Of a stretch of DNA of 64,000 nt, positions 343-63,664 are shown piece after piece. The position numbers were made by a program, and so were the translations under genes. The stretch is from a virus. Its lineage: Duplodnaviria > Caudoviricetes. The notes beneath the pieces were generated by a model, which saw only the letters and a list, made by a program, of their open reading frames with translations, had not been told where the DNA came from and ran no database searches. The DNA lies in IMG/VR virus record IMGVR_UViG_2895548450_000001, positions 1 to 64,000 of that record. One strand, written 5' to 3'. The number at the start of each line of letters is the position of its first letter. The stretch's first letter is position 1.

Positions 343-361
343 GTTGTAGCTCCAATTATCG

Positions 362-931
362 TCAATCTCTAAGCGTGATACGCTTGTTTATCCAACCAAA
401 CACGAACGTCTCGTCCGTCTCTCTGGATTCTGCCAGTTCTAAGTAATAGGCCCCCTGTAAACAATTGAGCGCTTTTAATATAACAGGTTCGGCTAAGGCT
501 TTACGATATGCGAAGTAAAGCTGCAAGGCCTTAAGTGTTTTGCTACCAAATACCCCATCTACCTTTATATCTATGTAGATGGTTTGCATCTTATTGAAAG
601 CATTCAACGCACGCTGTAAGAACTTAATCCCTGTCCCCGTGCCAAGGTTAACCCCAGCTTCAAATACCTCCCACGCTATCTCTGGGCTTACTGCAGCCAA
701 CTCCGAGATACGAGGACCAAACCAATAGGTCTGTAAGTATATTTCTCGGGCTTTGGATTGAGGCATATCTTTCATATCCCCAGTGTAACCGTGAGCGCGT
801 GCAACCTTTTCAGTAATCCCCCAGTTGGTGGGGCCACCTTTATCGTGAGGGTTATCGACATACCCCGCTTCTAGTTTCACGATTTGCGCCACGTAAGCCT
901 GAACTCGGGGGTCCGCTGAGTAGTTAGCCAT
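362..931 (-). CDS. Endolysin, glycoside hydrolase family 108 with C-terminal peptidoglycan-binding domain
   Basis: EAGYVDNPHDKGGPTNWGIT is the GH108 catalytic motif; VDGVFGSKT and FVFGWINKRI are typical of the PG-binding tail. Start set at ATG 931 (MANYS). Confidence 0.9.
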   Translation of the reverse strand: MANYSADPRVQAYVAQIVKLEAGYVDNPHDKGGPTNWGITEKVARAHGYTGDMKDMPQSKAREIYLQTYWFGPRISELAAVSPEIAWEVFEAGVNLGTGTGIKFLQRALNAFNKMQTIYIDIKVDGVFGSKTLKALQLYFAYRKALAEPVILKALNCLQGAYYLELAESRETDETFVFGWINKRITLRD

Positions 932-1382
932 TTTTAGCCTCTGAATTTCGTTGTTTTGAAATCTCATCCAACCTAGAAAGTATCTTCGTTTGCTGAGTGT
1001 TAGCGTTGGTTAGGTGTTGGATTATTAAACTTTGGTCCGATTCCAGTTTCGAAAGTCGGTGATTAATACCAGATAAGGCTTGGTCGATATGCTGCTTGTT
1101 GAATTCAAGCTTTTCATTGACGCGTTCTTCTCGAGGGTGGGCCAACGCAACGTGCTCTTTGAAAGCGGCGAGTTCACCAGATACTTTATTAACCGCGGAG
1201 GTTGCTGCAGTGTGATTACTGTTTACTGCGTCCCATAAATTTTTATTATTTTGTGAAGCGCTGTCTTTATCACTTTTAATATCAGACTTAAGACCCGAAA
1301 TTATAAACAGCGCTACAGTTACGGCTATACCCGTAACCGTTGCTACTACGCCTAAAAGCGCAAGCAAACTTGTTGAGTCCAT
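924..1382 (-). CDS. Membrane-anchored coiled-coil protein, possible holin/lysis accessory
   Basis: Single N-terminal TM helix then heptad-like coiled coil; overlaps endolysin start. Confidence 0.5.
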   Translation of the reverse strand: MDSTSLLALLGVVATVTGIAVTVALFIISGLKSDIKSDKDSASQNNKNLWDAVNSNHTAATSAVNKVSGELAAFKEHVALAHPREERVNEKLEFNKQHIDQALSGINHRLSKLESDQSLIIQHLTNANTQQTKILSRLDEISKQRNSEAKNG

Positions 1383-1383
1383 C

Positions 1384-1779
1384 TTAGTACCCCAGAAACT
1401 TCAAACATGAGAGATTTATACCAAGTGAACAACAAATAATTAGAACCCAAAGCCCAAAATAAGAAATACGGGCTTTGAGCGTTCTAATAGAAAAATAAGA
1501 TAAGTCTGTTGAGCGTGTTTTAAAATTCAGGAACTTCCTGTAATCACCGCTCTTTTCTGCCGCTAAAAAGGATTCAAGTATTTGAGAAACACTATCCTCG
1601 TAACTAACGTCTAACAGAACTGAAGTAAAAGGGTATCGGCCTTTCTTGACGGCCATAGGCGAACAGATGAATAAAGCGACAAGCTTCCGCCGTTCGTTGA
1701 AGATTTTTATAACTTCACTTTCGGTAGGGATTTGCTCAATTTTCAAATCGAGCTTAGAGGGATCGAGAATGCCCATCAT
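1384..1779 (-). CDS. Hypothetical protein with C-terminal TM segment
   Basis: ORF preceded by the AATTGACGAT motif and a sigma70-like promoter; hydrophobic C-terminus. Confidence 0.55.
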   Translation of the reverse strand: MMGILDPSKLDLKIEQIPTESEVIKIFNERRKLVALFICSPMAVKKGRYPFTSVLLDVSYEDSVSQILESFLAAEKSGDYRKFLNFKTRSTDLSYFSIRTLKARISYFGLWVLIICCSLGINLSCLKFLGY

Positions 1780-1817
1780 GCCGCCTAAGTATCGTCAATT
1801 AGCCTAATTTTCAATCA

Positions 1818-1846
1818 AGGATACTACCCTTATAGCTGAGTGTAAA
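1818..1846 (-). promoter_or_regulatory. Sigma70-like promoter for the lysis cassette
   Basis: TTTACA-17 nt-TATCCT on the minus strand, followed by AAAATT. Confidence 0.5.
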
Positions 1847-14213: not shown

Positions 14214-14245
14214 AAGAGCCCCAATATCGTCAATTTAACCAGATT

Positions 14246-15813: not shown

Positions 15814-16298
15814 ACAATTACCGTACTAAATTCAGGTTGCACATAGCGTCGAGGGGGGAACTTGGTTTTGTTCCCGTCGGAGAGCTTTCTTAACTGAAGG
15901 GTTAAAATAGAGGCACTAATATTACTGGCGTGAGAAACGTAAAAAACGTGCTTGGACGTTAGCGACCCGCCCTTTTCATGGGGTAGTGCTTTGTATCGAG
16001 TGACAATGGCGTCCTCTAACAGCCCTTGATTTAGATAATAGCTGTAGATACCCCCCTCGTTAGGGAGCGAAAGGCTCGGTCTGGTTTTCTCACCTGAAGA
16101 CTTGTTACCGATACCTGATATTTTAAACGGGGAGTGAGCCCAAGTGACGTCTTTCCAGTCGCGAGTTTCCCTATCCGTTAAGCGGATAATAACCGGTTGC
16201 CCGTCAGGGTCTTCAATAATAAGCTCTAGATAAGTGGTTAAGTCTTCAGGAGTCAGCGAGTGACGTTGGGACTGAATTTCTTGTGAAAGTTCTTTCAT
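15810..16298 (-). CDS. Minor tail protein L-like
   Basis: PFKISG...RPSLSLPN...FPPRRY pattern; synteny between M-like and K-like genes. Confidence 0.7.
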   Translation of the reverse strand: MKELSQEIQSQRHSLTPEDLTTYLELIIEDPDGQPVIIRLTDRETRDWKDVTWAHSPFKISGIGNKSSGEKTRPSLSLPNEGGIYSYYLNQGLLEDAIVTRYKALPHEKGGSLTSKHVFYVSHASNISASILTLQLRKLSDGNKTKFPPRRYVQPEFSTVIV

Positions 16299-16367
16299 CG
16301 TCAATTTCCCTCAATTTTCGCCTAGTATACCGAAAAGAGGAATAGATTGAATATTTTTCAATCGCCC

Positions 16368-16400
16368 AAAAACAGAACACCCCAGCAAGGCTGAGGCGTT
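16368..16400 (-). terminator. Intrinsic terminator of the candidate sRNA
   Basis: AACGCCUCAGC-CUU-GCUGGGGUGUU followed by CUGUUUUU; two G:U pairs form only on the minus strand. Confidence 0.7.
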
Positions 16401-16445
16401 GATTTGGAAATTGACGATAATTAGGAGCCACTTGGACTACTAACC
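16368..16445 (-). ncRNA. Candidate ~78-nt trans-acting antisense sRNA complementary to the shared translation-initiation motif
   Basis: Lies between a TTGACA-17-TAGTAT promoter and a terminator; contains GGCUCCUAAUUAUCGUCAAUUUCCAAAU, the reverse complement of the motif at ~40 gene starts. The 5' end is estimated. Confidence 0.7.
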
Positions 16446-16452
16446 GAGGCCA

Positions 16453-16481
16453 ATACTACGGCCTCACAATTTTATTGTCAA
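16453..16481 (-). promoter_or_regulatory. Near-consensus sigma70 promoter with AT-rich upstream element
   Basis: TTGACA (16481-16476), 17 nt, TAGTAT (16458-16453); almost pure A/T at 16482-16520; inverted repeat GAGGCC-N8-GGCCTC (16446-16465) spans the -10. Confidence 0.8.
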
Positions 16482-19900: not shown

Positions 19901-22889
19901 CAAGCCTAGAGATTGTACTGCCTTTACCTTTCCCGCCGGTCAGCATATCCACGCCGCCCAGTAGTCCGGCCCCTAAGCGAAGAACGCTTCGTGTGGCCAG
20001 CACGCCGCCCAATATTGAAGCTGGTACCGCTAATGCGCTGAGAATAGGGCCGAGGTCTCGCACTACGGAAAGGAAGTCAGCGGTTTTCTCTGTTAGCTTG
20101 GTAATAGTATCGAGTAAAGGCTCCATCGACTCATAGACAATCGATTTACTGATTGAGCCTAAGCGGTCTAGCTGGTTAGCTAAAGCTTCCATTTGCGTGT
20201 CGTTCGCACGGGCCGCAGAGCCACCAATACGCATTTGTTCGCTTAAGTCTTCCGCTACGCTAATGTTGTTAGCAAAAGCTCCGTATGCAGATGCCGCACG
20301 TACTTCCATACTCTCCATAGCGTCACGAACGGTAAAGCCACTCTCGGCCAGTGTTTTCATTACTGGTATCAAACCATGAGTGGTAATATCGAGGTCCGAC
20401 ATTGAAAGCCCGAGGTTATGTACGATCTCGGTAAAAGACTCAGAAGGCTTCTGCAGGGAAATAATAATCTGTCTAAGACCGGTACCAAGTGTAGAACCCG
20501 CTCGAATACCTGAGTTAGCCATGGCGCCAAGAGCCGATACCGTTTCTTCAAACGTCACATTCGACTGGGCCGCAAGGTTACCTGAATACTGTAGGCCTAG
20601 CGCAAGCTTATCGAGGTTCAATTTAGAGCTGTTCACAGCCGTAGTCATTTTGTCTACGATGTTGATCATCTGCGAACTGTCTTTATTAAATACCCCTAAT
20701 GTGGAGGTCGCTAGGTCCACGGCACTTTTTAAGTCCGACCCAACCGCTGTAGCGAAGAGCGTAACGCCCTCTATCGCGTTTTGGATATCATTTTGACCTA
20801 GGCCAGCCTGACCGAGCGTAATGGCCGCATCCGCGACGTCTGTGGCTGTAAACTTGGTTTTCTCTGATACATCGATTAGATTTTTAGAAAGTTCTTCCAT
20901 TTCCTCATTGGTGAGGTTCACAATGGATTGTAATTGTTTGAACTGTCTATCTAACTCGGTTGAGAACGTAGCGGACGTTGCAAGGCCACCCACACCGGCA
21001 CCCATTACCGCATAGTTACGCAGCAATTGTCCTTGGTTTCTAAATAGCTGGGCTCCGCCATCTAAGCGCTGGTTAGTTCTTGCTTGCTGTATTTGCTCAA
21101 TACGTCGCGCTACGCGTTGTTGTTCTGTAACTTGAGGCTTAGCTTGAGGTGTTTTCTTTGAATCCCTCTGAGCTGCTGCAGCGCGTTTCGCTTCTTCGCC
21201 CAGTAGTTTTATCTGGGCCTTAGCTTCTTGCGTACTTTTCTTAAGCTCTTTTAGCGCTTGGCTACTTTCCTTTCGTAATCTCGGGTTAGTATCCTGAGAA
21301 TCCCTACGAGCTTTATCCGCAGCACTCTTTAAGACTTTGTTTTTGTCTATCTCATCTTGTAACTGAGATACCGATAAACCTTTAAACTGGGTACCTCTTA
21401 ACGGGGCTGTGTTTGCCACCGTAGGATCGAGATAGCGTGCGCGTTTGTTGTAATCCTCAAGTGTCGCGTTCTCTATCTTTTTACGTGCAATATTGCTTTG
21501 TTTGTTTTGTTCTGCCGAGGCCTTGGCCGACTCTTCAAACTTTTTAAGCTGTTTTTCTGCCGCCGCAATACCCGCATCCAGTTTTTGTAGCTGCTTTCTG
21601 AATTTTTCGGTACTGGAACTATCACCAAATTTTTGCGCTTCTTTAAGCGCATCAGAGGCCCCTTTTCTTAAGAGCTTTTGACTAGCCAATGCGGATTGAA
21701 GGTCTTTCTGAGAAAAGTCCCCTACAGCATTAGGATTTATCTGGTTGCGTCGTTTTACGGTTGGGTTAGCTTCGAATTGTTTTTTATAGAACGAGTCTAA
21801 GGACCCTACACGCTTCTCTGCTTGCTGGGCTTGTTTTTTCTCGGCCTGTGCCGCGGCCTTTGCCGCTTCCCTTAATTCGGTAAGTCGTTTGGTTACAGCT
21901 AAGGTACTTTGCTCTAATTTCTCAAGCGCTTTTCCCGCATCTGTTTCAAGACGCTTATTGCCTGAGTTGTACCCTTCCTTAAGTGCATTGTTCGCCGCTT
22001 TAGTAAGAACTTTATTACGCTCAACTTCTTTTTCTAGTTGAGTGATCCCTAATTTGTTTACTCTAGAGGGGTCTACAACTTTATCTCTATTACGCGCAAC
22101 AGTGGGGTTAAGGCGGAACTCTTGTTCTCTAAAGGACCCCAGGCTTTTAGTTTGGGCTTTTACTTGTGCGGATTGTGCGGCTTCCGCTCTCTTAGCTTGC
22201 TCCGTAAATTTAGCTAGCTGCTTGTCGGCGGCATCTAAACCCGATTGAAGAGACCTAAGGGTGTTTTGGGCTTGTTTCTCAAGTTTGGTGTCCCCGAGCC
22301 TAATCGCATCTTTTAACGCATCTTTAGCACCTTTCTGGTAAAGCTTTTGGGATGCGATAGATTGTTGAAGCTGGTCGGCAGACAACCCCTTAACATTAGA
22401 CTTATATAGCCTACCCGCTTTAGGGATTGTTGGGTTGTTGCGGAACTGAAGATTATAGTAATCCTCTAATTGCTTAGCTTGTTTCTTGGCTTGCGCTTGG
22501 GCCTGTTTAGTGAAGCGACCTGTAATTTCCCCAAAGGCTTGATTGAGCCCCTTCAATAGTTCTTGCTGTTGCTGAGGATTAAGACCCTTCCCAACGGTTA
22601 AGGCTATTTGGTCTAGAAGCGCACGCGCATTCTTTTGGTTTTCATTTAAGATTTTGCGCTGGGTATTTACTTCATTTTTAGCATTCTGGGCTAATTCAGA
22701 GCGACCTTGGGGCGTGTCTTTTATAGCCTTTATGTTTGCCTGAAGTTGTTGGCTTGCCGCTTGTGTGACACGCTCGAGCTTTTCGAATTCCCGAGTAAGT
22801 TCTTCAATTACCTTTTTTGATTTCGGGTCTACCGTAAAGTTAAGTAACGTACTTCTAATGGTGTTGCCTGATCCAGTGCTGCCGGCCAT
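16905..22889 (-). CDS. Tape measure protein
   Basis: ~1994 aa, helical; TP901-type core (FTATDVADAAITLGQAG, GIRAGSTLGTGLR); C-terminal VSRGEFVLRKAAVDAIG. Confidence 0.95.
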   Translation of the reverse strand: MAGSTGSGNTIRSTLLNFTVDPKSKKVIEELTREFEKLERVTQAASQQLQANIKAIKDTPQGRSELAQNAKNEVNTQRKILNENQKNARALLDQIALTVGKGLNPQQQQELLKGLNQAFGEITGRFTKQAQAQAKKQAKQLEDYYNLQFRNNPTIPKAGRLYKSNVKGLSADQLQQSIASQKLYQKGAKDALKDAIRLGDTKLEKQAQNTLRSLQSGLDAADKQLAKFTEQAKRAEAAQSAQVKAQTKSLGSFREQEFRLNPTVARNRDKVVDPSRVNKLGITQLEKEVERNKVLTKAANNALKEGYNSGNKRLETDAGKALEKLEQSTLAVTKRLTELREAAKAAAQAEKKQAQQAEKRVGSLDSFYKKQFEANPTVKRRNQINPNAVGDFSQKDLQSALASQKLLRKGASDALKEAQKFGDSSSTEKFRKQLQKLDAGIAAAEKQLKKFEESAKASAEQNKQSNIARKKIENATLEDYNKRARYLDPTVANTAPLRGTQFKGLSVSQLQDEIDKNKVLKSAADKARRDSQDTNPRLRKESSQALKELKKSTQEAKAQIKLLGEEAKRAAAAQRDSKKTPQAKPQVTEQQRVARRIEQIQQARTNQRLDGGAQLFRNQGQLLRNYAVMGAGVGGLATSATFSTELDRQFKQLQSIVNLTNEEMEELSKNLIDVSEKTKFTATDVADAAITLGQAGLGQNDIQNAIEGVTLFATAVGSDLKSAVDLATSTLGVFNKDSSQMINIVDKMTTAVNSSKLNLDKLALGLQYSGNLAAQSNVTFEETVSALGAMANSGIRAGSTLGTGLRQIIISLQKPSESFTEIVHNLGLSMSDLDITTHGLIPVMKTLAESGFTVRDAMESMEVRAASAYGAFANNISVAEDLSEQMRIGGSAARANDTQMEALANQLDRLGSISKSIVYESMEPLLDTITKLTEKTADFLSVVRDLGPILSALAVPASILGGVLATRSVLRLGAGLLGGVDMLTGGKGKGSTISRLAKVASSRGLGTAAGFAARAIPGVGLATAVGTAGVYGYQYLDGRARANDRVDSTQAALNRGSSETKVYEDQLKKVGSAIDTLILKQNDLTDNKSLQREIRRLNDEFRQQGLYIDDSIDSYDKLITKMKEFEDATRDGVGYLQTQNRNNFVDNSQAKLDELFSIGFFDSSERKLLANEGNPNVSVGSGKTATSRGRFASRGNVYRSLIDTALPNFGDDLARINELIRNIKPSETGAFGRAQEARTQTQELQSQLFNILNQSPQELDNLMEQFGLSGEARDKAEEYINNLATEMLNRANTLLQVEKNQEQYDSLDPELKKEERRIAAIVLKNRRELLNDIAETSEEINALTEKNTSYETSDYLGTFKDINTLVREQIQGLLEDEKNALAELEAEGVANPRLVLQEQGYYQAAGEARGKLERSLQSAAKDARPDANLYYPARLAELDKEIDVLRDQLRQVTDRDKSDEVKAKLKEINLERERVANEQDTLFAAIDGNSPVSVAQRDRELNARVTLGNQQFDTIQAKTFARSRLERSIGEQKDLDVRDFKLLGDDDELSRLLSDVIGEERAEINNQLSKARQNAETLRNNAGDIRYDSQRYLNIASNTGYTDETRERAAGIANELESQAVQLEKEALALEEQAVKQAKESLMDFAEYLQTTIIDNEALTDGRSKAKTRKSVEDLETQNISLDGDLKDLSQATKEADRGLIEFRDQMGDTVRRINQSVYESDEFRRTQAAIYGTSYSPTGEQGVDENYGGQGGKTLGSQLSNAGAYVVDEVNKGYENFDMLTQMTNEAISAAQGLGDAFGATFADIITGAAESEDAFRALGVSILTEMANIATRALANQLIMSLFSGLGLMGGGMGGFFGGGMFTGGPVIAGSYKTGGLITSGMSTRDSTYAKVSRGEFVLRKAAVDAIGLETVKALNSADPNSVSDKEMMTSSAAQAAAATNSEDSGTVNVYVVSEKQLPPMGPNDVKAVIGDDIAREGELASLIASVAMRTR

Positions 22890-22908
22890 CGTCAATTTCC
22901 CCTAATTG

Positions 22909-23280: not shown

Positions 23281-23567
23281 TTCTCAACGTGCTCCGCTAC
23301 CCATTCTAACAAGTCGAGAACTTCATCGTGGTCAACGACCATTTTTGTCGTATCAAAGTTCTTAGTGATACGACCATTCTCATTTCTTTCAGAAAGTAAT
23401 TCCGTAATGATGCTGTTGCGAATTTCGGGGTTTAATAGGATTTGGTCTAGCTCTTCAGCGCTTCGGAAATACCCCGTGATAGTGTTTAATAGCGCAAAGC
23501 TCATAAAGACTTCTTTATCTTCATCATTAACGCGTAGATTAAATCTTGTGGCGGGATTATCGCTCAT
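23220..23567 (-). CDS. Tail assembly chaperone (G-like)
   Basis: Between tail tube and tape measure genes; contains slippery T TTT TTT. Confidence 0.75.
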   Translation of the reverse strand: MSDNPATRFNLRVNDEDKEVFMSFALLNTITGYFRSAEELDQILLNPEIRNSIITELLSERNENGRITKNFDTTKMVVDHDEVLDLLEWVAEHVENFFMKALQRAKQRMKKKQTI

Positions 23568-40440: not shown

Positions 40441-40501
40441 TGAAATCCGCCCTTCGGGGTGTTACGGCGTGAGCCGATTAATTAACTAGGAAATTGACGA
40501 T

Positions 40502-40888: not shown

Positions 40889-40919
40889 TAAACACCAACA
40901 ATTAGTGAGATTGACGATT

Positions 40920-41712: not shown

Positions 41713-41780
41713 GATGCGAAGGGGGAGAATGTTCCCCCCCTGATTTGGTAATTAACTTTTAAAAATTGGAAATTGACGTT

Positions 41781-43085: not shown

Positions 43086-43132
43086 ACGATAACGAGGGTG
43101 GGAACATTCCCCCCCTCTTTTGGAGATTGACG

Positions 43133-43288
43133 ATGCGCCAAGTGTGCAAAAAGTGTGGTGGCACCATGCTAGGAGACGGGTATAAAACGGTTGAGCACTG
43201 CGAGTTTTCTACCGACCCAGAAATTGACTTTATGGCCCCTGATGAAGGGCCAGTTTATTGTGACTTTAAGGAAATTGACGATGAGTGA
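43133..43288 (+). CDS. 51-aa Cys-containing protein (possible zinc ribbon), not in the ORF track
   Basis: GGAGATTGACGATG start; MRQVCKKCGG...HC...YCDFKEIDDE. Confidence 0.7.
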   Translation: MRQVCKKCGGTMLGDGYKTVEHCEFSTDPEIDFMAPDEGPVYCDFKEIDDE

Positions 43289-43769: not shown

Positions 43770-43987
43770 GTGAAGACACCCCGAAGATAAAGCGTCCCAG
43801 AAACAAGACGCTTATTGAAGTTATCACTTACCTTGAGTCGATAAACCTAAATGTTTACGGCCCTGCGCTTTGTTTAGAAACGGGTAAAAAGTCCTTTGGT
43901 TTTATGGACTATTCCCCCGAGAACGTACTTAAGTACCGCAAGTTACTGGAAGCGAGAAAAATTGCTGAGGAAATTGACGATGAATAA
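43766..43987 (+). CDS. Hypothetical protein
   Basis: GGAGG RBS, ATGA overlap. Confidence 0.65.
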   Translation: MSEDTPKIKRPRNKTLIEVITYLESINLNVYGPALCLETGKKSFGFMDYSPENVLKYRKLLEARKIAEEIDDE

Positions 43988-44876
43988 CCAACCACCAAAA
44001 GTAAACCCGCGTTTTCCCCTACTCCGCATGTTAATTGCGACGATGGAGGAAGTCGTTAAGGCTGAGTTGCCTTTGAAAATGACTGTCTACTTTGATAGTC
44101 CTGCGGTGGCTAAGGACGCGAAAGATATTCACACCTGTGGAACTCCGGCTTGTGTCGCTGGCTATGGTGCGGTCACGCCAGAAATTCAGAAATTAGTGGG
44201 TGTAGATACCGAGGATTTTCGAAGCCAAATCGCAGCGGAGCAAGTTTTTTGGGCCTTACACCATGAAATAGGCAATCTTGCGGAGTCAATCGTCGCAGGG
44301 TCACTTTATCTAAGACGCTCGGCAGCAGAAACCTATCTCCCCCCTGAGTCCAAACGTTTCCAGCATCTATTAGTGGAGGAACCTACCGCGCTGGACGCGT
44401 TGGAGTTTATGAAGCATGTGCTGGACCTGTTGTTAAATGGCCGTGTTGGAGTGAATGAAAGAAGACAGCCACACCCTCACAGATACACCTCAGAAGAGAT
44501 TTTGGCGGATAAGGATATTGCGTTCTACAACATCCCCGAAAGAGTCAGTTCCGGTATGCCTATTCACTACATAATAGCGGATGAGGAATGGGGCTGGATG
44601 AACTTCGTTGAAGGTAAGTACAGCATTCACGACTACATCATGAAAAACCTTGAGTGGGTTGACCCTGATGATCCTGAAGCGGAAAACCAAGTGCCGGTTC
44701 TCACTATCACTTGTGCCGATGAATTGAGTCGAGCGCTCGATGCCGATTGTGGAGGGGCGGGTAAAGCCGCGTGCTTGGCGGACGATACCGCGCTACAGGC
44801 TATTTTCTTCTCGCTGTATCAAGAAGACTGGAACGAACGTTTGGAGGACTTTGACGATGCCAAAGAAGAAGAATAA
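43980..44876 (+). CDS. Two-domain hypothetical protein (HTCGTPACVAG domain plus acidic domain)
   Basis: Motif-linked ATG; N-half paralogous to 42266-42763. Confidence 0.75.
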   Translation: MNNQPPKVNPRFPLLRMLIATMEEVVKAELPLKMTVYFDSPAVAKDAKDIHTCGTPACVAGYGAVTPEIQKLVGVDTEDFRSQIAAEQVFWALHHEIGNLAESIVAGSLYLRRSAAETYLPPESKRFQHLLVEEPTALDALEFMKHVLDLLLNGRVGVNERRQPHPHRYTSEEILADKDIAFYNIPERVSSGMPIHYIIADEEWGWMNFVEGKYSIHDYIMKNLEWVDPDDPEAENQVPVLTITCADELSRALDADCGGAGKAACLADDTALQAIFFSLYQEDWNERLEDFDDAKEEE

Positions 44877-45117: not shown

Positions 45118-45140
45118 AATTGACGATAAGGAGAAAAGCC

Positions 45141-45563: not shown

Positions 45564-45610
45564 GGGGGAATGTTCTCCCCCCTTTGGAATTAACTTTTTG
45601 GAGATTGACG

Positions 45611-45796
45611 ATGAAAGACGATTTAAAAGATATTGTTCTTAAAAATCTTCTTAAAAAGATTGAGGCTATAAAAATTGAACCTGAAAGATTCGTTGGATAT
45701 CGAGGGGTCAATGAGTGTTATGAACCATCTACCGCGGATGGGGAGAAAGTCAAAGAAGTAAAAAAGCTGGCTAAAAAACTACGCAAGTTAGTTTAG
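45611..45796 (+). CDS. Hypothetical protein
   Basis: Motif-linked ATG. Confidence 0.6.
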   Translation: MKDDLKDIVLKNLLKKIEAIKIEPERFVGYRGVNECYEPSTADGEKVKEVKKLAKKLRKLV

Positions 45797-45826
45797 AAAA
45801 TTAACTCTTAAATTTGGAAATTGACG

Positions 45827-46726
45827 ATGCAAATAAACGTAAACAGTTACTTTAGTGGTGCTGGCCTGATGGATGTTGGGCTGATAAACGCGGGTTTAAC
45901 GATAAACCAAGCGTTTGAAATTGATAAAGACGCGGTTAAGACGTACCGCGAGAATATTGGTTCCCACGTTCAACAGTGCGACTTGACCGAAGAACTGGTG
46001 TTAAATCAAGAAGAGTGTGACGCTATGATCTTCACCTACCCTTGCACCAAGTATTCAACGATTGGTGATATCCACGGGGTTAGAACGGGTGACGAGTTGT
46101 TCCTTCATGCTTTACGCCACTTGGCCATTCGCAAGCCCGATGCTTATGTTGTGGAAAATGTGCCAGGAATGAGAGCGTTCCCGCTGGTAATGGAAGCTAT
46201 GACAAAATTACCAGATTACTACGTTCACGTTTTCTGTCCGGTCCAGTCGCAGCATTGGCTACCCCAGCGTAGAGACCGTTTGATTATTTTTGGTACCCGC
46301 CGACCTTTTGAAGTTCGCCCACCGAAGAACTGTCGTCCGGTCACGCTGGCTGAGATTGTCGAGCACGACCCTGACGTAACGTTACCCAGTGCTATCAAAG
46401 CGCGAATGACGGGTAAGTATCGCGACCTACCAATAATCAGCGACCCGAGCAAAGGTGACTTAGCACCAACCTGTGTTGCTCACTATGCGAAGGACAAATC
46501 AACACGATTACTGGCGGACAAGCGATTCCCCATGGGTGTTCGTCCTTACTCAGTGCGTGAATATGCACGGCTTCAAGGGGTACCAGATTGGTTTACGTTC
46601 CCTGTCTCGGCAACAGCCGCATACCGCCAGATTGGTAATGGTGTATCGGTACCGAAAGGTGAATGGGTAGGCGGCGAGTTGTACCGCTATTTTCAACAAA
46701 GTAAAAAATTAGACAAGGTGGCTTAA
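45827..46726 (+). CDS. C5-cytosine DNA methyltransferase
   Basis: FSGAG motif I, PC catalytic motif (YPCT), ENV, QRRDR, REYARLQG, YRQIGNGV. Confidence 0.95.
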   Translation: MQINVNSYFSGAGLMDVGLINAGLTINQAFEIDKDAVKTYRENIGSHVQQCDLTEELVLNQEECDAMIFTYPCTKYSTIGDIHGVRTGDELFLHALRHLAIRKPDAYVVENVPGMRAFPLVMEAMTKLPDYYVHVFCPVQSQHWLPQRRDRLIIFGTRRPFEVRPPKNCRPVTLAEIVEHDPDVTLPSAIKARMTGKYRDLPIISDPSKGDLAPTCVAHYAKDKSTRLLADKRFPMGVRPYSVREYARLQGVPDWFTFPVSATAAYRQIGNGVSVPKGEWVGGELYRYFQQSKKLDKVA

Positions 46727-47301: not shown

Positions 47302-47309
47302 GGAAATTG

Positions 47310-47591
47310 ATGATGTGTAACTGTTTTGAAGAAACAATGGAAAAAGTAACCGAGCATGTTAAAGAGCAATTGCCGGACAACGTGGAAGAATTTAAAGCCG
47401 AATGGCAGGGCCGAGCTTATATGCTTGCGGAAGGTCAGTATGCTCCAACCAGCCCTAAAATTGAATACGAGTATCGGCCTATGAAGCGAGACGGTACCCC
47501 GCAAAAGAATCTTAAGAAAGATTCAATAACGATACTAGCAAGCCATTGCTGCTATTGTGGTGAGAAGTTCGAACGACCTCAAACGTCGTAA
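47310..47591 (+). CDS. Small Cys-containing protein
   Basis: GGAAATTGATGATG start; MCNC...HCCYCG. Confidence 0.7.
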   Translation: MMCNCFEETMEKVTEHVKEQLPDNVEEFKAEWQGRAYMLAEGQYAPTSPKIEYEYRPMKRDGTPQKNLKKDSITILASHCCYCGEKFERPQTS

Positions 47592-47649
47592 CTCTCGGGG
47601 GAGAATATTCCCCCCTCTTAATTAACTTTTAAATTGGAAATTGACAATT

Positions 47650-49835: not shown

Positions 49836-49894
49836 CTTAGGGGGGAATGTTCTCCCCCTTCAATTAACTTTTAACAATTTGGAAATTGACGATT

Positions 49895-52091: not shown

Positions 52092-52147
52092 ACCTTAACG
52101 GGGGGAATGTTCTCCCCCCCTTTTAATTAACTTGTTGGAAATTGACG

Positions 52148-52594
52148 ATGAAACGTATTAGTAATTTTGATTTTGAATTAAACCTATCCCATGCCGGAGA
52201 AGCTACCGACGACACGACTAAGATGAAGCGCGAGATTATTCGTGTTTTAAAAGCCACTATTGCAGAACTTGAGGGAGGTGTGGGCGATAGCGAGGAATTC
52301 TGGAAGAAGTCTTTCAACGATATTAACGGACGTCCCTTTGGTAATGCGTATCTTAATGTTGAAGAAATGGACTGGATTTCAGACTGGGACGAATGGATTG
52401 AACACTGCAAAGAATATATCAAAGAGCACGGCTTCTACCTAGAGCAGGAAAGCACCACTATCTATGAGTGGGACACGTTAGCAGAACTTGACGAAACGGC
52501 TTTAGCGGAGTGGTTCAGTAATTACACGGACAGTTCAGTAACAAGCGAGATAGTTTGCCCTGAAGCGCGTAACTGGGGATGGGATAGCGAATGA
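52148..52594 (+). CDS. Hypothetical acidic protein
   Basis: Motif-linked ATG. Confidence 0.7.
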   Translation: MKRISNFDFELNLSHAGEATDDTTKMKREIIRVLKATIAELEGGVGDSEEFWKKSFNDINGRPFGNAYLNVEEMDWISDWDEWIEHCKEYIKEHGFYLEQESTTIYEWDTLAELDETALAEWFSNYTDSSVTSEIVCPEARNWGWDSE

Positions 52595-52803
52595 GTGATA
52601 AAGACTTAGGCACCCTGCTTCGAGCTAAAGAGATTCTTAACGGTTACTTTCTCCCTCGACCTTTCGAGTCGGCGGAGAAAGCCTTGAACCGCGCTAAGAA
52701 TGAAGCTATTCAAAATCTACAAAAGCAAATTGTAGATATCCGTAATTTAACCAGTGAAGAGTTCTACACTTCTTCAGAGAAGGAAATTGACGATGCCTGT
52801 TAG
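52591..52803 (+). CDS. Hypothetical protein
   Basis: ATGA overlap. Confidence 0.6.
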   Translation: MSDKDLGTLLRAKEILNGYFLPRPFESAEKALNRAKNEAIQNLQKQIVDIRNLTSEEFYTSSEKEIDDAC

Positions 52804-53140: not shown

Positions 53141-53199
53141 TAACACATTCAAGGGGGGGAATGTTCTCCCCTTTTTAATTAACTTGTTGGAGATTGACG

Positions 53200-54039
53200 A
53201 TGCACCCTGAATTAACAAAACAACTGAAAGCAAACTGCCAAAAACTAGGTCTAGATTTCAACGCACTTGACTTGATTGGCGAATCTGAAACCCAGATTAG
53301 AGATATCACAATTAAGATTGAGCGTGATGAGGATGCGGAGAGCCCTCGAGAGTGGGACAACGTAGGAAAAATGGTGTGCTGGCACCGTAATTATAGATTA
53401 GGTGACGAACAGCCTTCAGGGAGCCACGAAGATTATCGTATTGGCATGGTAGAAGCGGTTGAGCCAGGGTTTGAAGATATGCTTCAACGTCTAGAGCATA
53501 ACTGGCCCTCAACAAACTGGGATGCCGCGGGGACTAAAGAGTATCAAGAGCTGGTTGAAGCGAAGATAGCGGCGAGACTTGAGAAATATTACTTTATGCT
53601 GCCGCTTTATCTATATGACCATTCAGGCATTACTATGAATACAAGTGGGTTCTCGTGCTCTTGGGACTCGGGCCAAGTAGGTTTCATCTATGTGTCGAAA
53701 GAAAGAGCCCGTGAACAGTATGGATTTAAGCGGTTAACTAAAGAGCGCGTCCAAAAGGTTTATGATTACTTAGACAGTGAAGTTAAGACCTATGCTTCTT
53801 ATCTTGAAGGTAATGTTTATGGCTACGTTATTGAAGGTGGTGATATCGATGATTCGTGCTGGGGATATGTCGGCCCAGATGGTGAAGGTTGGGCATTGTC
53901 CGAAGCCTTAGCTATTTTGGCCACCCACAAAAAACAGCGTGTGGAAAGCCGAGTTGACAAAATTAAGACTTGGATCAAAAACCAAGTACCCTTGCTAAAA
54001 CGTCGCGAACTGGCAACAGACCTACCAATATTGTTATAG
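53200..54039 (+). CDS. Conserved-looking phage hypothetical protein
   Basis: SPREWDN, LPLYLYDHSG, WDSGQVGFIY and DSCWGY motifs. Confidence 0.75.
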   Translation: MHPELTKQLKANCQKLGLDFNALDLIGESETQIRDITIKIERDEDAESPREWDNVGKMVCWHRNYRLGDEQPSGSHEDYRIGMVEAVEPGFEDMLQRLEHNWPSTNWDAAGTKEYQELVEAKIAARLEKYYFMLPLYLYDHSGITMNTSGFSCSWDSGQVGFIYVSKERAREQYGFKRLTKERVQKVYDYLDSEVKTYASYLEGNVYGYVIEGGDIDDSCWGYVGPDGEGWALSEALAILATHKKQRVESRVDKIKTWIKNQVPLLKRRELATDLPILL

Positions 54040-55128: not shown

Positions 55129-55497
55129 TTACTCCCAGAACGTTGTCAGAAAACGTCTAAAGTCCGAAAACGGGATATCAGATAACGTTATCTTACTAAC
55201 TACAGACCCTAAGCTCTTTTTCATGTGAGCACGCTTAGCGATTTGTTGGTACCAGTAAAATTCTTCGGTGGGGATTTTTCCGTATCGTTCAGCGTTAGAT
55301 ATCGTGTTCTTGTGTACGTCAGCAGCGATAGCTAACTCTTCTTGGGTTAACCGATAGTTCTGACGCATTTGCTTAAACTTTCGAGCCATAATGCGGCGTC
55401 TTTCGAGTTCCCAAGGGGGTTCTAAATTATCGTCAATTTTTCTAGACAAGGCGTGTACTCCATCAAGGCCATATTGTAAATCTTTTACTACAGACAA
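55129..55497 (-). CDS. XRE-family HTH regulator
   Basis: FKQMRQNYRLTQEELAIAADVHKNTISNAERYG; start may instead be ATG 55389. Confidence 0.85.
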   Translation of the reverse strand: MSVVKDLQYGLDGVHALSRKIDDNLEPPWELERRRIMARKFKQMRQNYRLTQEELAIAADVHKNTISNAERYGKIPTEEFYWYQQIAKRAHMKKSLGSVVSKITLSDIPFSDFRRFLTTFWE

Positions 55498-55633: not shown

Positions 55634-55678
55634 TATCTCTGCCTACGGGCTTAACTTTAAAATTTGGAAATTGACGAT

Positions 55679-56854: not shown

Positions 56855-57489
56855 TGGCCCAGCTACGTCGTGATAATGTATTTCGATTACAACGTAGCTT
56901 GTTCTACTGGGATAAGTCTTTTGACGCACCATTCGTGCATCTTATCTACAAAAAGCTTCGAGCTTACATTGACGATAAGTTCCCTGATTTTGACTGGGAT
57001 AGCGAATTAAAGTTAGCGAGGGAAGACTTTTCCCATGTTAAGACTTGGGGGGACTTAGATACAGGTCTTGAAAAAGACCGCGTAGTCATTCGGTTCAAAG
57101 GCCAGAGTATAGATATCACACTCACTAAAATGATGTGGTGTTTACTTTACCCTGATTACTTACTGATAACCTACCCTATCTGGCCCCCAGGAAAAGTAAA
57201 GACGATGGACCCAGTGACACGACGTTGGGCTAACCCTATGTATCACTATCCGTCTCGTTACTGGCACCTACCGGATCACGTTTACACCTATTTCGAGAGT
57301 GTTTATGGTGAACGTAGGTTGGAGGATATTAAAAGTAACAATTATCACAGGTACCTAGAAAAGCGTGATGAGTATTGCCGATACTTTGCTCGTAAGTATA
57401 AGTTACCCGAGTCACATTTTGCGGCGGTAACCGGTACTAAAGTACAGGCAAGAAAGTTAGATTTACAAAGTATCTTATCTGTTTATTGA
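56854..57489 (+). CDS. Hypothetical protein
   Basis: TAATG coupling with the ligase. Confidence 0.7.
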   Translation: MAQLRRDNVFRLQRSLFYWDKSFDAPFVHLIYKKLRAYIDDKFPDFDWDSELKLAREDFSHVKTWGDLDTGLEKDRVVIRFKGQSIDITLTKMMWCLLYPDYLLITYPIWPPGKVKTMDPVTRRWANPMYHYPSRYWHLPDHVYTYFESVYGERRLEDIKSNNYHRYLEKRDEYCRYFARKYKLPESHFAAVTGTKVQARKLDLQSILSVY

Positions 57490-58041: not shown

Positions 58042-58067
58042 TTACTCAAACAATCAGGAAATTGACG

Positions 58068-58760
58068 ATGCAACTGCACAAAGACCCCGCACCCCTCGGG
58101 CACTACGGTATCCATGAGGACGACGGTGTAAATTATCTCTATCAAGATATTTGTCCCCACGGCTGGAACTTTATCGGCCTAAGTACAAAATCAAATCTCA
58201 CTGTAAAACCGCTTAAAAACCAGTGCTCACATAATATCAATGTGAATCTGGCCACGCGTAAACTCAGTAAAATCCATTTGGCTAAGTTCAACAACATCGT
58301 GGCCGATCCTTTGGTTCAAGCAATGTTACCGGTCCCTAATGGTAAGACTTACTTTCTGGATGCGAATAAGTTCCCCGACGCTGCGGTATGGCTTGCGTGT
58401 CTTGAGCGTTTGAATTCTCCACTTCATACATGGGTTAAGCCTTTGTTTGCGGTGAGCATGAACCATGCGCTGAAGCATATTGATAAGACCAACATTCACC
58501 CTATGGTCTTTGTCGACCTTAAGGGCACTGACACGGAAGAGGTTCTTAAGCTTGCAACTGCAGCTCGTACTTCACCCCGCACGGTTATCTTTTGTGGTGA
58601 TCCCTCAATGGTGCTTCCTAAGCATATTGAACGCTTGGATACGAAGCTCGATGAGCTTACGACGTTGCAAGATTTGATTAGCCTTCCACTGGAACACCTA
58701 GGGAGCTATATCCTTTCGGAATACTGCAAAGGAACACGTTCCTTTTCGAAAGTCGCGTAA
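58068..58760 (+). CDS. Hypothetical protein
   Basis: Motif-linked ATG. Confidence 0.7.
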   Translation: MQLHKDPAPLGHYGIHEDDGVNYLYQDICPHGWNFIGLSTKSNLTVKPLKNQCSHNINVNLATRKLSKIHLAKFNNIVADPLVQAMLPVPNGKTYFLDANKFPDAAVWLACLERLNSPLHTWVKPLFAVSMNHALKHIDKTNIHPMVFVDLKGTDTEEVLKLATAARTSPRTVIFCGDPSMVLPKHIERLDTKLDELTTLQDLISLPLEHLGSYILSEYCKGTRSFSKVA

Positions 58761-58804
58761 CAATAAGAGCAACTAATAAATTGACGATAAGAGACACGAA
58801 AGCC

Positions 58805-60947: not shown

Positions 60948-61081
60948 TTAATAAGCTAAGGTTATCATCTATACCTCTTTAAAGGCCGGTATAGCGATAC
61001 TTCGGAGCAAACCGAAGGGCGAAAGCCGAACAAACAGTAATTAATCAAAATGTAATTAATCAAAAAATTAGGAAATTGACG

Positions 61082-62137
61082 ATGAACAATATCGAACAAA
61101 TGATCGCGGCTGCTCAAAATAACGCAGCTCAAGCTACTACTGCTCAACAGGAAACTCAAGTTACCCAGCAAGCCGCGGGTCAAGACTTCCAGCAAGCTAA
61201 CACGGTTCAAGCTAATACTACGCAGCAACAAGCTACGCAGCAACAAGCGAACCCACAGGTTGTGAACCAGACTGAAACTTATACTCAGACTGCGGAAGCC
61301 GCCCCCCAGCAAGCTACCCCACAGGTTGTAAATCAACAAGCTAATACTGCTCAGGTTAACACCCAGCAAGCGAGTGCAATCCCACAGCACTTGCAACAAC
61401 AAGCACAAGCTCAGCAAGCAGCACAAGCTCAACCACAACAGCAAGCTCCAATGGCGGTGAACCCCGTAGGTAATATGAGTATGGATATCCCTGCGAACTT
61501 ACCGCCCGAGTTGGCTAAGTTTATCGGTCAGCGCGAAATGTCGATGGATACCATGTCTAACTCTGACCTATTGGTTCAAGACTGGTTGAAGCCAAGCTAC
61601 CACGGTATGGTTTTAGGTAGCGCTCCTGCAACACTTCTTAACCCGTTCCAGGTTGAAATTGATATGACTGAGAACGTTGGGTATATGCTTTGCCAAATGG
61701 TTCGCTGGACGGTGCCAACACCAACAGGAGACCAAACCAACTATGTTCACACCTACGACGGTTTGACAGGTTCAGATGGTCAACCTTGGGCGAATGCTGT
61801 AATAACAGCTTACCGCGCCCCCACTACGGACCCTAAAAAGCCAAACGTACCGTTCCCAAGTGTTCAGTTACCAATGCGTTTACTTAACGACATTGCTAAC
61901 CAGCAAGGCGCGGTTATCGCTCAGGCAGGGATCATGATTGGTCACACTACGGCCAAGACTGGCTGGCAGAACTGGCAGAACTTCCACAATGCGTGTAAGC
62001 AAGCTGGGTTACTAGGTCAGAAAGTGATTGTTGAAGTGTCTAACCAACCAGTGGCACCAAAAGGTATCACGTATAAGTGGGGGACTCTAGAGTTCAAATT
62101 GATTGGTCCGGCACAAGGCCAAATCGCAGCACAATAA
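61082..62137 (+). CDS. Replication-region protein with Q/A/T-rich N-terminus (possible SSB/annealing protein)
   Basis: About 120 aa of low complexity then a globular domain; between helicase and exonuclease; own terminator. Function is a guess. Confidence 0.55.
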   Translation: MNNIEQMIAAAQNNAAQATTAQQETQVTQQAAGQDFQQANTVQANTTQQQATQQQANPQVVNQTETYTQTAEAAPQQATPQVVNQQANTAQVNTQQASAIPQHLQQQAQAQQAAQAQPQQQAPMAVNPVGNMSMDIPANLPPELAKFIGQREMSMDTMSNSDLLVQDWLKPSYHGMVLGSAPATLLNPFQVEIDMTENVGYMLCQMVRWTVPTPTGDQTNYVHTYDGLTGSDGQPWANAVITAYRAPTTDPKKPNVPFPSVQLPMRLLNDIANQQGAVIAQAGIMIGHTTAKTGWQNWQNFHNACKQAGLLGQKVIVEVSNQPVAPKGITYKWGTLEFKLIGPAQGQIAAQ

Positions 62138-62155
62138 CCTTTTAATTAACTTAAG

Positions 62156-62180
62156 AAGGGTCGGCTTGTCCGGCCCTTTT
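62156..62180 (+). terminator. Intrinsic terminator
   Basis: AAGGGTCGG...CCGGCCCTT then TT. Confidence 0.65.
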
Positions 62181-62199
62181 ACTCTCGGAAATTGACGAT

Positions 62200-63003
62200 A
62201 TGACAAAGCTAAAACTACACGTTTGTGATGGTAATAACCTTCTTCGCCGCAAGTTTGAAAGTGAGGGTCCTAGCTGGGCTATCCTTGCCTACGTTCAGGC
62301 TTGTGCAAATAATTCTCCTAACGGCTCACTCATCTGGGTTTGGGATGGCGCTAACGCTAAAAAGCCTCGCCAAGAAATTCACCCAGCCTATAAAGCCGGT
62401 TCAGATTCTACCGACGAATTCTATCTCTTCATGGATAAGTTCCGTGAATTGCTTACACACTCTGGCTGTATCCAGATTCGATGCGAAGGCCGAGAAGCCG
62501 ATGATGTTATTGCTGAATTGGTAAATACCAAATCGCCTGAAACTGAAATCTTTATCGACAGTAACGACCAAGATTTTCGCCAACTGCTTAGCGACACGGT
62601 AACTATGGACTACGTGAGCGAGAAGCTTAAAGAATTCAAGCCTGATGATATGCGCCTCTACAAAACACTGGTTGGCGATAAATCGGATGCGATTACGGGC
62701 CTCGCACGTTTCGGCCATGGCACGTACCAGAAACTAAATGATTCCGCGAAGTGCTTTCTAGAAGATGCTTTGCAAAGTGATGAGCCTATCACAGCGGAGC
62801 AAGTTGAAGCTGAAGCGGGATTCACAAAAGCTATGGCTGCTCGATTTGTTGAGAGCCGTGATGAGCTGAAGAAGTTCTGGAAGATCATCGGTTTCTTCCA
62901 CGTACCTCAAAGCGAAATTCACGCTGGTACGATTATCGGTAAGCAAGATACCGTAGCGGCCAAAGCTGTCTTCGACGCTTTAGCAATTCCTATCAACTTA
63001 TAG
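62200..63003 (+). CDS. 5'-3' exonuclease / flap endonuclease (PolI N-terminal-like)
   Basis: DGNNL, WDG, YKAG, EADDVIA, SNDQDFRQL and LVGDKSDAITG motifs. Confidence 0.93.
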   Translation: MTKLKLHVCDGNNLLRRKFESEGPSWAILAYVQACANNSPNGSLIWVWDGANAKKPRQEIHPAYKAGSDSTDEFYLFMDKFRELLTHSGCIQIRCEGREADDVIAELVNTKSPETEIFIDSNDQDFRQLLSDTVTMDYVSEKLKEFKPDDMRLYKTLVGDKSDAITGLARFGHGTYQKLNDSAKCFLEDALQSDEPITAEQVEAEAGFTKAMAARFVESRDELKKFWKIIGFFHVPQSEIHAGTIIGKQDTVAAKAVFDALAIPINL

Positions 63004-63034
63004 TGGTTGGGGCTTCGGCCCCTCGAGAACGATT

Positions 63035-63664
63035 ATGAGTAGCACAAATAAAAAGGTCGCTGAGTTCGAAGACTACCCCACCCCTAGAGAACTTGTCGAA
63101 GCCTTATTCAAACATATTGACTGGGACGCGCTTAGGCACTTTGCGTCCTACGACAACCGGCCAGCTCGGTTCCTAGAGCCGTGTCGGGGCCTGAAAAGAA
63201 ATATCTACGACTTGGTACCACCGGACTTTGAAAAGTATTACTGCGAAATTCAAGAAGGTTTGGACTACCTAGAAGCGGAGTTCGACCCAATAAACTTCGA
63301 TATTATTGTAACGAACCCCCCTTTCTCACTCTTTGAAGAATTCGTCACCAAAGCACGAAGCGAAGCTGCAGACCACGGGTTCGTATGCTTCTTAATGCGG
63401 ATTAACGCTTTAGGTACGAAGAAACGAGAACAGTTCTGGGCGGATAACCCGCCGGATAAAATTATTGTCGCTGTACCACGCCCAGACTTTAGTGGTGGAG
63501 GTGGGGATAGCTGCGAGTATGCGTGGTTCTGCTGGGACCCCACAGGGATACTCTTAGTGGACTCTAACGTTGGGCGCCTTAACTGGGATAAACCATCAAA
63601 GCGCAGAAGCAAGAAGATAGACAACCGGAAATTGACTGATGAAAAAGAAAGCCAAACGCAATAA
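63035..63664 (+). CDS. Amino (N6-adenine-type) DNA methyltransferase
   Basis: DYPTP, FLEPCRG, IVTNPPF, EYAWFCW. Confidence 0.88.
   Translation: MSSTNKKVAEFEDYPTPRELVEALFKHIDWDALRHFASYDNRPARFLEPCRGLKRNIYDLVPPDFEKYYCEIQEGLDYLEAEFDPINFDIIVTNPPFSLFEEFVTKARSEAADHGFVCFLMRINALGTKKREQFWADNPPDKIIVAVPRPDFSGGGGDSCEYAWFCWDPTGILLVDSNVGRLNWDKPSKRRSKKIDNRKLTDEKESQTQ

Follow-up and report, generated by a model that had tools for sequence, protein, structure and literature searches.

A start-codon tag repeated across a temperate siphovirus and its relatives, and a candidate phage-encoded small RNA complementary to it

Phage antisense RNAs that pair near ribosome-binding sites include P4 CI RNA, P22 sar and lambda oop, and in T4 a protein reader, RegA, acts at degenerate sites overlapping the start codons of many messenger RNAs (mRNAs) and places their translation under joint control. 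RocC/RocR of Legionella, with its targets, is reportedly a system built on a FinO domain. FinO-family proteins are found on phages, bind terminator-type structures and aid the pairing of antisense RNAs at ribosome-binding sites, according to the passages of PMC9977716 drawn on here. Start-associated sequences (SAS) have been described in Cluster K mycobacteriophages (Pope et al., 2011; PMC3203893) and in a survey of 188 genomes (PMC12699233), and in the sections of that survey used here their function is still given as unknown in 2025. Here we describe a short start-codon motif, the tag, in the first 64 kb (hereafter the window) of the 90,777-bp IMG/VR 'provirus' record IMGVR_UViG_2895548450_000001 (G000 below), of which a temperate marine siphovirus fills bases 1 to ~81,600 (~81 kb). 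Judging from the sequence, we regard it as an evenly balanced proposition that the tag may be the translation-start target of a small RNA (sRNA) encoded by the phage and complementary to the tag, an anti-tag sRNA. Enrichment, start fusion, strand bias, complementarity, conserved architecture, seed/tag co-variation and the FinO domain were computed here, and from these we infer production of the RNA, its action in trans, repression, and RNA binding by the FinO-domain protein.

The 9-nt core of the tag, ATTGACGAT, is by a wide margin the most over-represented word of the phage. The window has 34 exact copies, where 100 dinucleotide shuffles gave a mean of 0.44 and a maximum of 3 and never reached 34; the preliminary description of this DNA had counted about 34 exact cores against roughly one expected, and the two counts agree. 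Of the 39 positions that it listed, 31 are indeed exact, six are one-mismatch variants, one (59095) has two mismatches and one (63626) retains only GGAAATTGAC, and the list lacked the exact copies at 16410(+), 37354(+) and 56968(+). The whole record has 41 exact copies, 30 on the plus strand and 11 on the minus strand, the last at 80113 before the integrase gene, and there are no copies in the 9-kb foreign island beyond the phage. The motif had been called genome-wide, which holds throughout the phage and stops at the prophage end. The full tag consensus comprises 13 nt, GGAAATTGACGAT, and a tag is present at about 40–50% of the phage genes.

A tag site is laid out as an A/U-rich run followed by GGA(A/G), ATTGACG and the ATG. 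In 31 of the 41 copies (class 1) the ATG either overlaps the core (ATTGACG-ATG; 23 copies) or comes 2 nt (4 copies) or 3 nt (4 copies) after it, usually with GGAA or GGAG in front. Six further copies (class 2) have their start 13–18 nt downstream behind a separate Shine-Dalgarno (SD) site, and the remaining four are without an open reading frame (ORF) start. When 20,000 random positions were examined with the same 6-nt window for a start, only 4.3% were positive, and 40 of the 41 copies share the strand of the genes around them. The earlier statements that the motif is co-oriented with the gene and lies mostly 0–20 nt from the start are thereby confirmed. It had also been described as non-palindromic; its use is strand-specific, but the core itself is a near-palindrome (ATYG-A-CGAT).

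The tag also affects how genes are called. Among 45 ORFs of at least 150 aa, 21 were called with TTG, and in 14 of these the TTG is that of the core, in frame and 6 nt before the ATG. Because GGAA lies just one base ahead of the in-core TTG, the ATG is taken to be the real start, and the suspicion that the many predicted products beginning with MTM or MTI are TTG miscalls proved right for these 14. If the model proposed below holds, annotators would gain a rule for these genomes, in which a TTG within the tag is not the start. Genes of this phage that lack a tag have ordinary SD sites with unrelated spacers. The gap to the upstream gene has a median of 44 nt for tagged genes (5 nt or less in 10 of 47) and of 3 nt for untagged genes, which mostly abut or overlap their neighbor (5 nt or less in 28 of 49). 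The best explanation is that the tag belongs to genes that initiate translation independently and are not coupled to the gene upstream. Tags at 43973, 44850 and 52786 lie within the ends of upstream ORFs, and tags therefore track translation starts, not transcript starts. They are found on both arms of the genome, the terminase, portal, major head, tape measure and tail genes included.

A single copy is antisense. It lies at 16406–16418 on the minus strand, is the exact complement of GGAAATTGACGAT (the same DNA as the orphan plus-strand copy 16410–16418), and forms the seed of an sRNA-like unit, the parts of which are listed in Table 1. The predicted 80-nt RNA folds with z -4.09, and none of 200 shuffles folds equally well. 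The unit is found at a syntenic gap of the tail module in 10 genomes from 6 lineages (G000, G001, G002, G004, G005, G006, G007, G011, G012 and KB12-38, a Pseudoalteromonas phage; the copy in G003 is identical). In the consensus structure of the 10 sequences, 10 of 20 pairs show compensatory changes and the seed is unpaired and nearly invariant, and a terminator is predicted on the correct strand in all six lineages. A covariance model of the unit finds one locus per genome and gives no match in Achromobacter phage JWF, the high-GC relatives, G008 or mycobacteriophage Anaya. No family of Rfam 15, C4 included, reaches its gathering score in the window, the best score at 16250–16560 being 17.2 bits against a cut-off of 50. 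The preliminary description had proposed an RNA-level regulon tag. This is supported, by evidence that is computational throughout, and the candidate reader is the sRNA-like unit, whose unpaired seed is complementary to the tag and co-varies with it across lineages.

A portal protein search retrieved 34 viral loci, and the tag recurs in a clade of marine relatives with 22–43 copies per genome. Close relatives (portal identity 95%) have the identical tag, and G001 and G002 (the 88% group) have a mixture of ATTGACGAT and ATCGACGAT. The 22 copies in G005 (portal 60%, terminase 51%) stand in the register GG-ATTGACGAT-ATG. G006 carries 27 copies of the form GGA-ATTGACGATGA and G007 29 of the form GGAA-ATTGACGATGA, with terminases 59–63% identical; these two genomes were reached via an exact 14-mer scan of viral contigs, in which the other matches listed were mostly single chance ones. 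A degenerate form, GGATTGAC(A), stands ahead of many starts in KB12-38. Between lineages the core shifts by 0–2 nt, and the distance from GG to ATG is constant at 8–9 nt. The high-GC relatives, JWF among them, have no tag. G008, with 8 copies, was considered as an unrelated tag carrier and rejected, as its copies have no SD or start context and it has no terminase or capsid homologue; these are chance or coding matches in AT-rich DNA.

The seed is complementary to the tag of its own lineage, being ATCGTCAATTTCC for the tag GGAAATTGACGAT in G000 and G007, ATATCGTCAATCC for GGATTGACGATAT in G005, and TTGTCAATCC for GGATTGACAA in KB12-38. Pairing was assessed by duplex energies, as ungapped runs of at least 12 pairs with G-U were too noisy. 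At -14 kcal/mol or below, the own seed formed duplexes with 47/98, 42/85, 35/94, 36/80, 52/109 and 38/86 of the translation initiation region (TIR) windows of six genomes, against 5/98, 6/84, 14/94, 8/80, 13/109 and 4/86 of the internal gene windows in the same order, and shuffled seeds gave 3–9 strong-duplex windows at this cut-off. In each of the six genomes the own seed yields the most strong duplexes, narrowly in two. Perfect seed matches of at least 13 nt occur at 28 sites in G000, and five of these extend to 17–19 nt, compared with 13 nt for the cis neighbor: 19 nt at 37346, 18 nt at 55662 and 80105, and 17 nt at 45812 and 49877. The small gene before the integrase gene (80122–80370) has an 18-nt match, and the integrase gene is untagged. 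The seed has a second segment, CUCCU, which can pair with the SD that class 2 sites have of their own, and both site classes are therefore explained. A weak hairpin (CAATT, a GGA-containing loop, AATTG) that might display the SD was set aside; the upstream bases are accounted for by pairing with seed CCAAAU.

Variation within the tag follows the seed. In eight genomes where the seed has A opposite core position 3, there are 0 C-variants among the tags in SD context (T counts: G000 31, G005 19, G006 20, G007 26, G003 35, G004 36, G011 34, G012 35). A G at this seed position can pair with U as well as with C, and in the two genomes that have it the tags are divided into 15 T and 12 C (G002) and 19 T and 11 C (G001). 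The mixture is found only in the genomes with a G seed and is therefore as predicted by wobble pairing. In G007 the TIR next to the unit is a variant, GGAAACTGACGATG, that is mismatched to the seed, which instead complements the genome-wide consensus, and in G006 the neighboring TIR differs from the seed complement by a wobble-compatible change. These discrepancies between seed and neighbor argue against a purely cis role, and the wobble pattern likewise favors action in trans.

Outside the window, at 75667–76173, G000 encodes a 168-aa protein with a FinO/ProQ domain (PF04352, Pfam score 47.1 bits with the cut-off at 27; match to E. coli ProQ 5nb9 at E 1.5e-5). A FinO-domain gene is present in every tag-bearing genome covering the region (G001, G003–G007, G011, G012 and KB12-38, where the depositors' note reads 'PFAM-ProQ'); G002 is an 81%-complete record without that region. 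A search of 50,697 phage records with the FinO-domain protein matched KB12-38 alone. JWF lacks the FinO-domain gene, the tag and the intergenic gap. By analogy with described FinO systems, the protein is likely to be a chaperone of the predicted anti-tag sRNA.

We propose that the tag would be read as RNA by the ~80-nt phage sRNA (~16447 to 16367, minus strand). Pairing over 13–19 bp would cover the SD bases and the start codon, whereby 30S binding would be blocked and translation repressed, and the CUCCU stretch would cover the class 2 sites' own SD. The FinO-domain protein could stabilize the sRNA or accelerate pairing, in analogy to FinO/FinP and FopA/Inc. Tagged genes head independent translation units, and therefore one RNA could throttle most of the phage. 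This could keep leaky lytic genes quiet in the lysogen, shut out a superinfecting relative or set the timing of expression. More tentatively, the arrangement could be an RNA master switch, in which one ~80-nt sRNA and its FinO chaperone silence nearly all independent translation units at once; if true, lysogenic silencing or superinfection immunity would here be based on RNA, and the co-evolution of seed and tag would determine its specificity. In the library of articles that we searched, no description of a phage-wide start tag with an anti-tag sRNA was found. If the model is true, it would be the first phage-wide translational regulon under one phage sRNA and would give phage-borne FinO/ProQ proteins a wider role. 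Its predictions are open to test in culture, with KB12-38 and the Pseudoalteromonas host of that phage.

A number of results weigh against the sRNA model. Tags stand on early-type and structural genes alike, with no obvious temporal logic. Just three of the seven one-mismatch variants at starts are wobble-compatible, and perfect 13-nt identity at 23 sites exceeds the need of known sRNA seeds. A promoter-like site passes the scan criteria in four of the six lineages, with none in G002 and G005, and 0.5–0.8 such sites are found by chance per shuffled region of equal size. The unit is located inside the late structural operon, so that the anti-tag would also be part of the polycistronic late mRNA. 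The wobble evidence counts as one event, because G001 and G002 are one lineage, and the co-occurrence of FinO domain and tag is weak evidence, because one clade is compared with one outgroup and the comparison is phylogenetically confounded. The complementarity statistics and the matrix in which the own seed performs best are equally expected if the anti-tag is no more than a copy of an ordinary TIR, and in the minimum free energy (MFE) folds of 5/5 genomes the partner of the anti-tag is a TIR in cis, that of the gene which follows. These folds would suit a tag that is simply the optimal ribosome landing site of the clade, read by the host ribosome alone; the anti-tag would then act locally in cis, as a leader or attenuator masking the TIR of the tail gene after it, and would have no trans targets. 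The layout of promoter, leader and terminator is compatible with an attenuator, and the A/U-rich run upstream and the SD-like GGA at normal spacing, kept in all lineages despite the shift of the core, are compatible with a landing site. We consider this explanation unlikely, if still credible. It leaves unexplained why an identical 9–13-nt spacer should stand at 20–40 genes in phages whose terminases are only 51–63% identical and why untagged genes manage with unrelated spacers, and neither the G007 seed, which fits the consensus tag and not its cis neighbor, nor the confinement of the T/C relaxation to G-seed genomes is expected from it. Nor does the tag have special complementarity to 16S ribosomal RNA, for which E. 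coli served as proxy: 76% of shuffled motifs pair equally well or better, and the tag was rejected as a 16S-pairing signal.

Many identical start-proximal sites point to one trans factor, which might also be a protein, and the tag would then be the operator of a RegA-like repressor, of an activator, or of the FinO/ProQ-domain protein binding single-stranded tag RNA. The tag presumably resembles the T4 RegA consensus, a FinO-domain protein is encoded, and there are clade-conserved proteins of no known family (58068–58760, 61082–62137). We find such a reader improbable, since it would leave the conserved anti-tag unit and the wobble pattern without a role, FinO domains are described in the relevant passages of PMC9977716 as recognizing terminator-type hairpins and not a single-stranded word, and no other RNA-binding family was found among 50 proteins compared with PHROGs and 40 compared with Pfam (overlapping sets). 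Recombination could have homogenized the tags without any regulatory reader, if they were shared gene-start boundaries for cassette swaps or gene conversion; the phage encodes an exonuclease, a RecU-like resolvase and SbcCD, gene content is mosaic between relatives, and each genome has also homogenized a GC-rich palindromic hairpin of its own. However, the core is identical in lineages without detectable nucleotide similarity, whereas the hairpins differ from genome to genome, and conversion alone leaves unexplained the fixed orientation, the fusion to ATG and the single conserved inverted copy with its terminator, which makes this origin distinctly improbable. That the tag acts in DNA, as a promoter or -35-like element or as the site of a double-stranded DNA-binding protein, we hold to be highly unlikely. 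TTGACG does match the -35 consensus at five of six positions, and ATCGACGAT of G001 and G002 is palindromic around one central base. Against this, a -10 hexamer 16–18 nt downstream was looked for and no conservation past the core was seen, the information content being 0.0–0.3 bits from 2 nt past the core onward. At 23 of 41 sites the core overlaps the ATG, and a promoter there could therefore not serve that gene; moreover, tags are found inside tight operons, and the gene orientation of all but one copy extends to class 2 sites, which do not need the ATG overlap. A promoter of a T7-type phage RNA polymerase was excluded, as the large ORFs are all otherwise assigned and none encodes such a polymerase.

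Table 1. Positions of tag sites and of the parts of the predicted sRNA unit in the window.
Feature	Position	Strand	Remark
Tag, class 2	358..366	-	ATG at 342, 17 nt downstream; 13-nt perfect seed match
Tag, class 2	1791..1799	-	ATG at 1779
Tag, class 2, central tail fiber J-like gene	14226..14234	-	GTG at 14213
Tag, class 1 (GGAA + core, overlapping ATG)	16297..16305	-	next gene downstream of sRNA unit; pairs in cis with anti-tag in MFE fold
Intrinsic terminator stem of sRNA unit, then T run	16376..16400	-	compensatory changes across relatives
Predicted sRNA, ~80 nt	16367..16447	-	5' stem-loop, unpaired seed, terminator
Seed (anti-tag)	16406..16418	-	exact complement of GGAAATTGACGAT
Sigma70-like promoter of sRNA unit	16453..16481	-	TTGACA, 17 nt, TAGTAT; 10/12; equivalent hexamers in relatives
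Tag, class 1, tape measure gene	22888..22896	-	
Tag variant GTTGACGAT, class 1	23566..23574	-	
Tag, class 1 (GGAG)	24461..24469	-	
Tag, class 1, major head protein gene	28969..28977	-	
Tag, class 1, phrog_37797 gene	30582..30590	-	
Tag, class 1, portal gene	32118..32126	-	
Tag, class 2, large terminase gene	33933..33941	-	GTG at 33920
Tag, class 1 (core + TATG)	34024..34032	+	
Sense tag copy without ORF, apparently non-coding unit	37346..37364	+	19-nt perfect seed match, longest
Tag, class 1 (core + TATG)	37771..37779	+	
Tag variant ATTGATGAT, wobble-compatible, class 1	39103..39111	+	
Tag, class 1	39598..39606	+	
Tag, class 1 (core + ATG)	40493..40501	+	
Tag, class 1 (core + TATG)	40910..40918	+	
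Tag variant ATTGACGTT, class 1	41772..41780	+	
Tag, class 1	43126..43134	+	
Tag, class 1	43274..43282	+	
Tag, class 1, overlapping end of upstream ORF	43973..43981	+	
Tag variant TTTGACGAT, class 1, within end of upstream ORF	44850..44858	+	
Tag, class 2	45119..45127	+	GTG at 45141
Tag, class 1	45604..45612	+	
Tag, class 1, DNA methyltransferase gene	45820..45828	+	17-nt seed match
Tag variant ATTGATGAT, class 1	47306..47314	+	
Tag variant ATTGACAAT, class 1	47640..47648	+	
Tag, class 1	49885..49893	+	17-nt seed match
Tag, class 1	52141..52149	+	
Tag, class 1, within end of upstream ORF	52786..52794	+	
Tag, class 1	53193..53201	+	
Core copy within 5' part of leftward HTH_3 (repressor-like) ORF	55429..55437	-	15-nt seed match
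Tag, class 1, DNA ligase gene	55670..55678	+	18-nt seed match
Core copy within ORF, no SD context (Ile-Asp-Asp codons)	56968..56976	+	probably incidental
Tag, class 1	58061..58069	+	
Tag, class 2	58780..58788	+	ATG at 58805
Tag, class 1	61075..61083	+	
Tag, class 1, exonuclease gene	62191..62199	+	

Other elements lie near the tags. The longest seed match falls in an apparently non-coding unit at 37216–37488 (+), which follows the primase gene, precedes the next gene with a tag, and has a weak promoter-like site and a terminator at 37461–37478. G004, G011 and G012 share this 19-nt match; the unit could be a sponge for the sRNA or its prime target. Many tagged genes have a GC-rich palindromic hairpin ahead of them (12-mer GAACATTCCCCC, with 9 copies on either strand), for example at 37731–37748, 39575–39592, 43100–43117, 45575–45592 and 52112–52129, and the relatives have homogenized hairpins of their own (GGGGGCATGTGCCCCC in G007, GTGGGGACTCCCCAC in G006, CGGGGTAACGTTACCCCG in KB12-38). 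This looks like concerted evolution of terminator-like hairpins, and they are possible ligands of FinO/ProQ proteins. A palindromic word, TTAATTAA(C), occurs at ~12 sites 2–12 nt upstream of GGAA (e.g. 40476–40484 and 52123–52131), with a related word, AATTAAACTAAAA, in G005 and KB12-38; we take it to resemble the 'epsilon' enhancer of T7 gene 10. The leftward HTH_3 (XRE-type) gene that has a core copy within its 5' coding part (55129–55497, minus strand) is possibly the phage repressor.

The structural module of the phage occupies the minus strand from 1 to 34 kb (large terminase, portal, major head protein, tape measure, tail fiber J-like and endolysin genes), and the plus-strand module from 34 to 81 kb consists of replication and recombination genes, including primase, several DNA methyltransferases (at least three: 45827–46726, 51280–51897 and 63035–63664), ligase, helicase, DNA polymerase and SbcCD. 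No tRNA or transfer-messenger RNA was found. The integrase gene at 80334–81572 marks the end of the phage. Past it, outside the window, an island of 9 kb (81.7–90.8 kb of G000), without tags, holds a second tyrosine integrase, a UvrD-like helicase, two reverse-transcriptase genes, a serine resolvase and a third integrase-like gene, and may be a defense island. A megablast of 12 kb against the 50,697 phage records gave no match. By terminase identity the nearest named relatives are KB12-38 (50%) and JWF (46%), followed by Caulobacter phage Seuss (40%) and Acinetobacter phage EAb13 (39%), and the sole match of a portal protein search of genome contigs is a distant Mesorhizobium prophage. In JWF the top repeated 10-mers (11 counts each, strands pooled) merge into GTTCGTAACGAAC and its reverse complement. 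The large terminase gene of G006 (C1:34138-36351) matches in two pieces, query residues 71–593 and 3–71, ~440 bp apart, which suggests an intervening element, for instance an intron, intein or homing endonuclease.

Among described systems, the P1/P7 C4 RNA resembles the proposed sRNA in that it is a small phage RNA which blocks phage gene expression by pairing near a ribosome-binding site and contributes to lysogeny or immunity, as far as the account in PMC8198154 goes. Such antisense RNAs of phages have one or two targets adjoining their own gene, whereas the regulon proposed here would be phage-wide, and it lacks an Rfam match. The comparison with RegA differs in that no RegA-like protein was identified here. 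Nearest in mechanism, along with the C4 RNA and RocC/RocR, are the FinO/FinP/traJ system of F-like plasmids and FopA/Inc/repZ, where the passages of PMC9977716 describe a FinO-domain protein of a mobile element together with a terminator-bearing antisense or trans RNA over a ribosome-binding site. The partner RNA in such systems ends in a terminator hairpin with a U tail, and an end of this kind is predicted here in 6/6 lineages, with compensatory pairs. The FinO systems, however, deal with one mRNA or a handful, whereas here 35–52 TIRs per genome share a homogenized target, the RNA would be encoded in trans to nearly all of its targets, the carrier is a tailed phage, and the RNA-protein pair is a predicted one.

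The closest likeness is to the SAS of Cluster K. In the parts of the SAS literature cited above, SAS, like the tag, are short asymmetric repeats present in many copies, a few nucleotides before starts, in one orientation and mostly before ATG; they overlap the ribosome-binding position and are conserved beyond what pairing with ribosomal RNA explains. Both also have a single inverted copy away from gene starts, at 16410(+) here and at 59870 in Anaya. In copy number the tag, with 41 in G000 and 22–43 in the relatives, exceeds the 10 per genome that we took as the lower bound for an SAS-like repeat, but it reads GGAAATTGACGAT and falls outside the SAS consensus GGGATAGGAGCCC with up to 2 mismatches. 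As those sources describe it, the SD stands in the middle of the SAS repeat, whereas the conserved core of the tag is the spacer and part of the start codon, and SAS occur in the non-structural arm alone, whereas the structural arm has tags too; the host phylum differs as well. Given the different sequence, SD position and arm restriction, the tag is therefore an analogue of SAS and not a member. Start-fused phage repeats have been known since 2011 without a mechanism; for the tag, unlike for SAS, the sequence alone points to a candidate reader, an sRNA-like unit complementary to it, together with a FinO-domain gene in the same clade. The sole inverted SAS copy of Mycobacterium phage Anaya (59870–59882) lies in a 385-nt non-coding gap, where no promoter-like site was found at the copy, and on the gene strand a GC-rich hairpin is predicted with the copy in its 10-nt loop, a lead towards a possible anti-SAS RNA. 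Many sense tags together with one inverted anti-tag copy may be a logic that applies to the Cluster K SAS as well, and if the model holds, one inverted copy should be sought wherever start tags occur.

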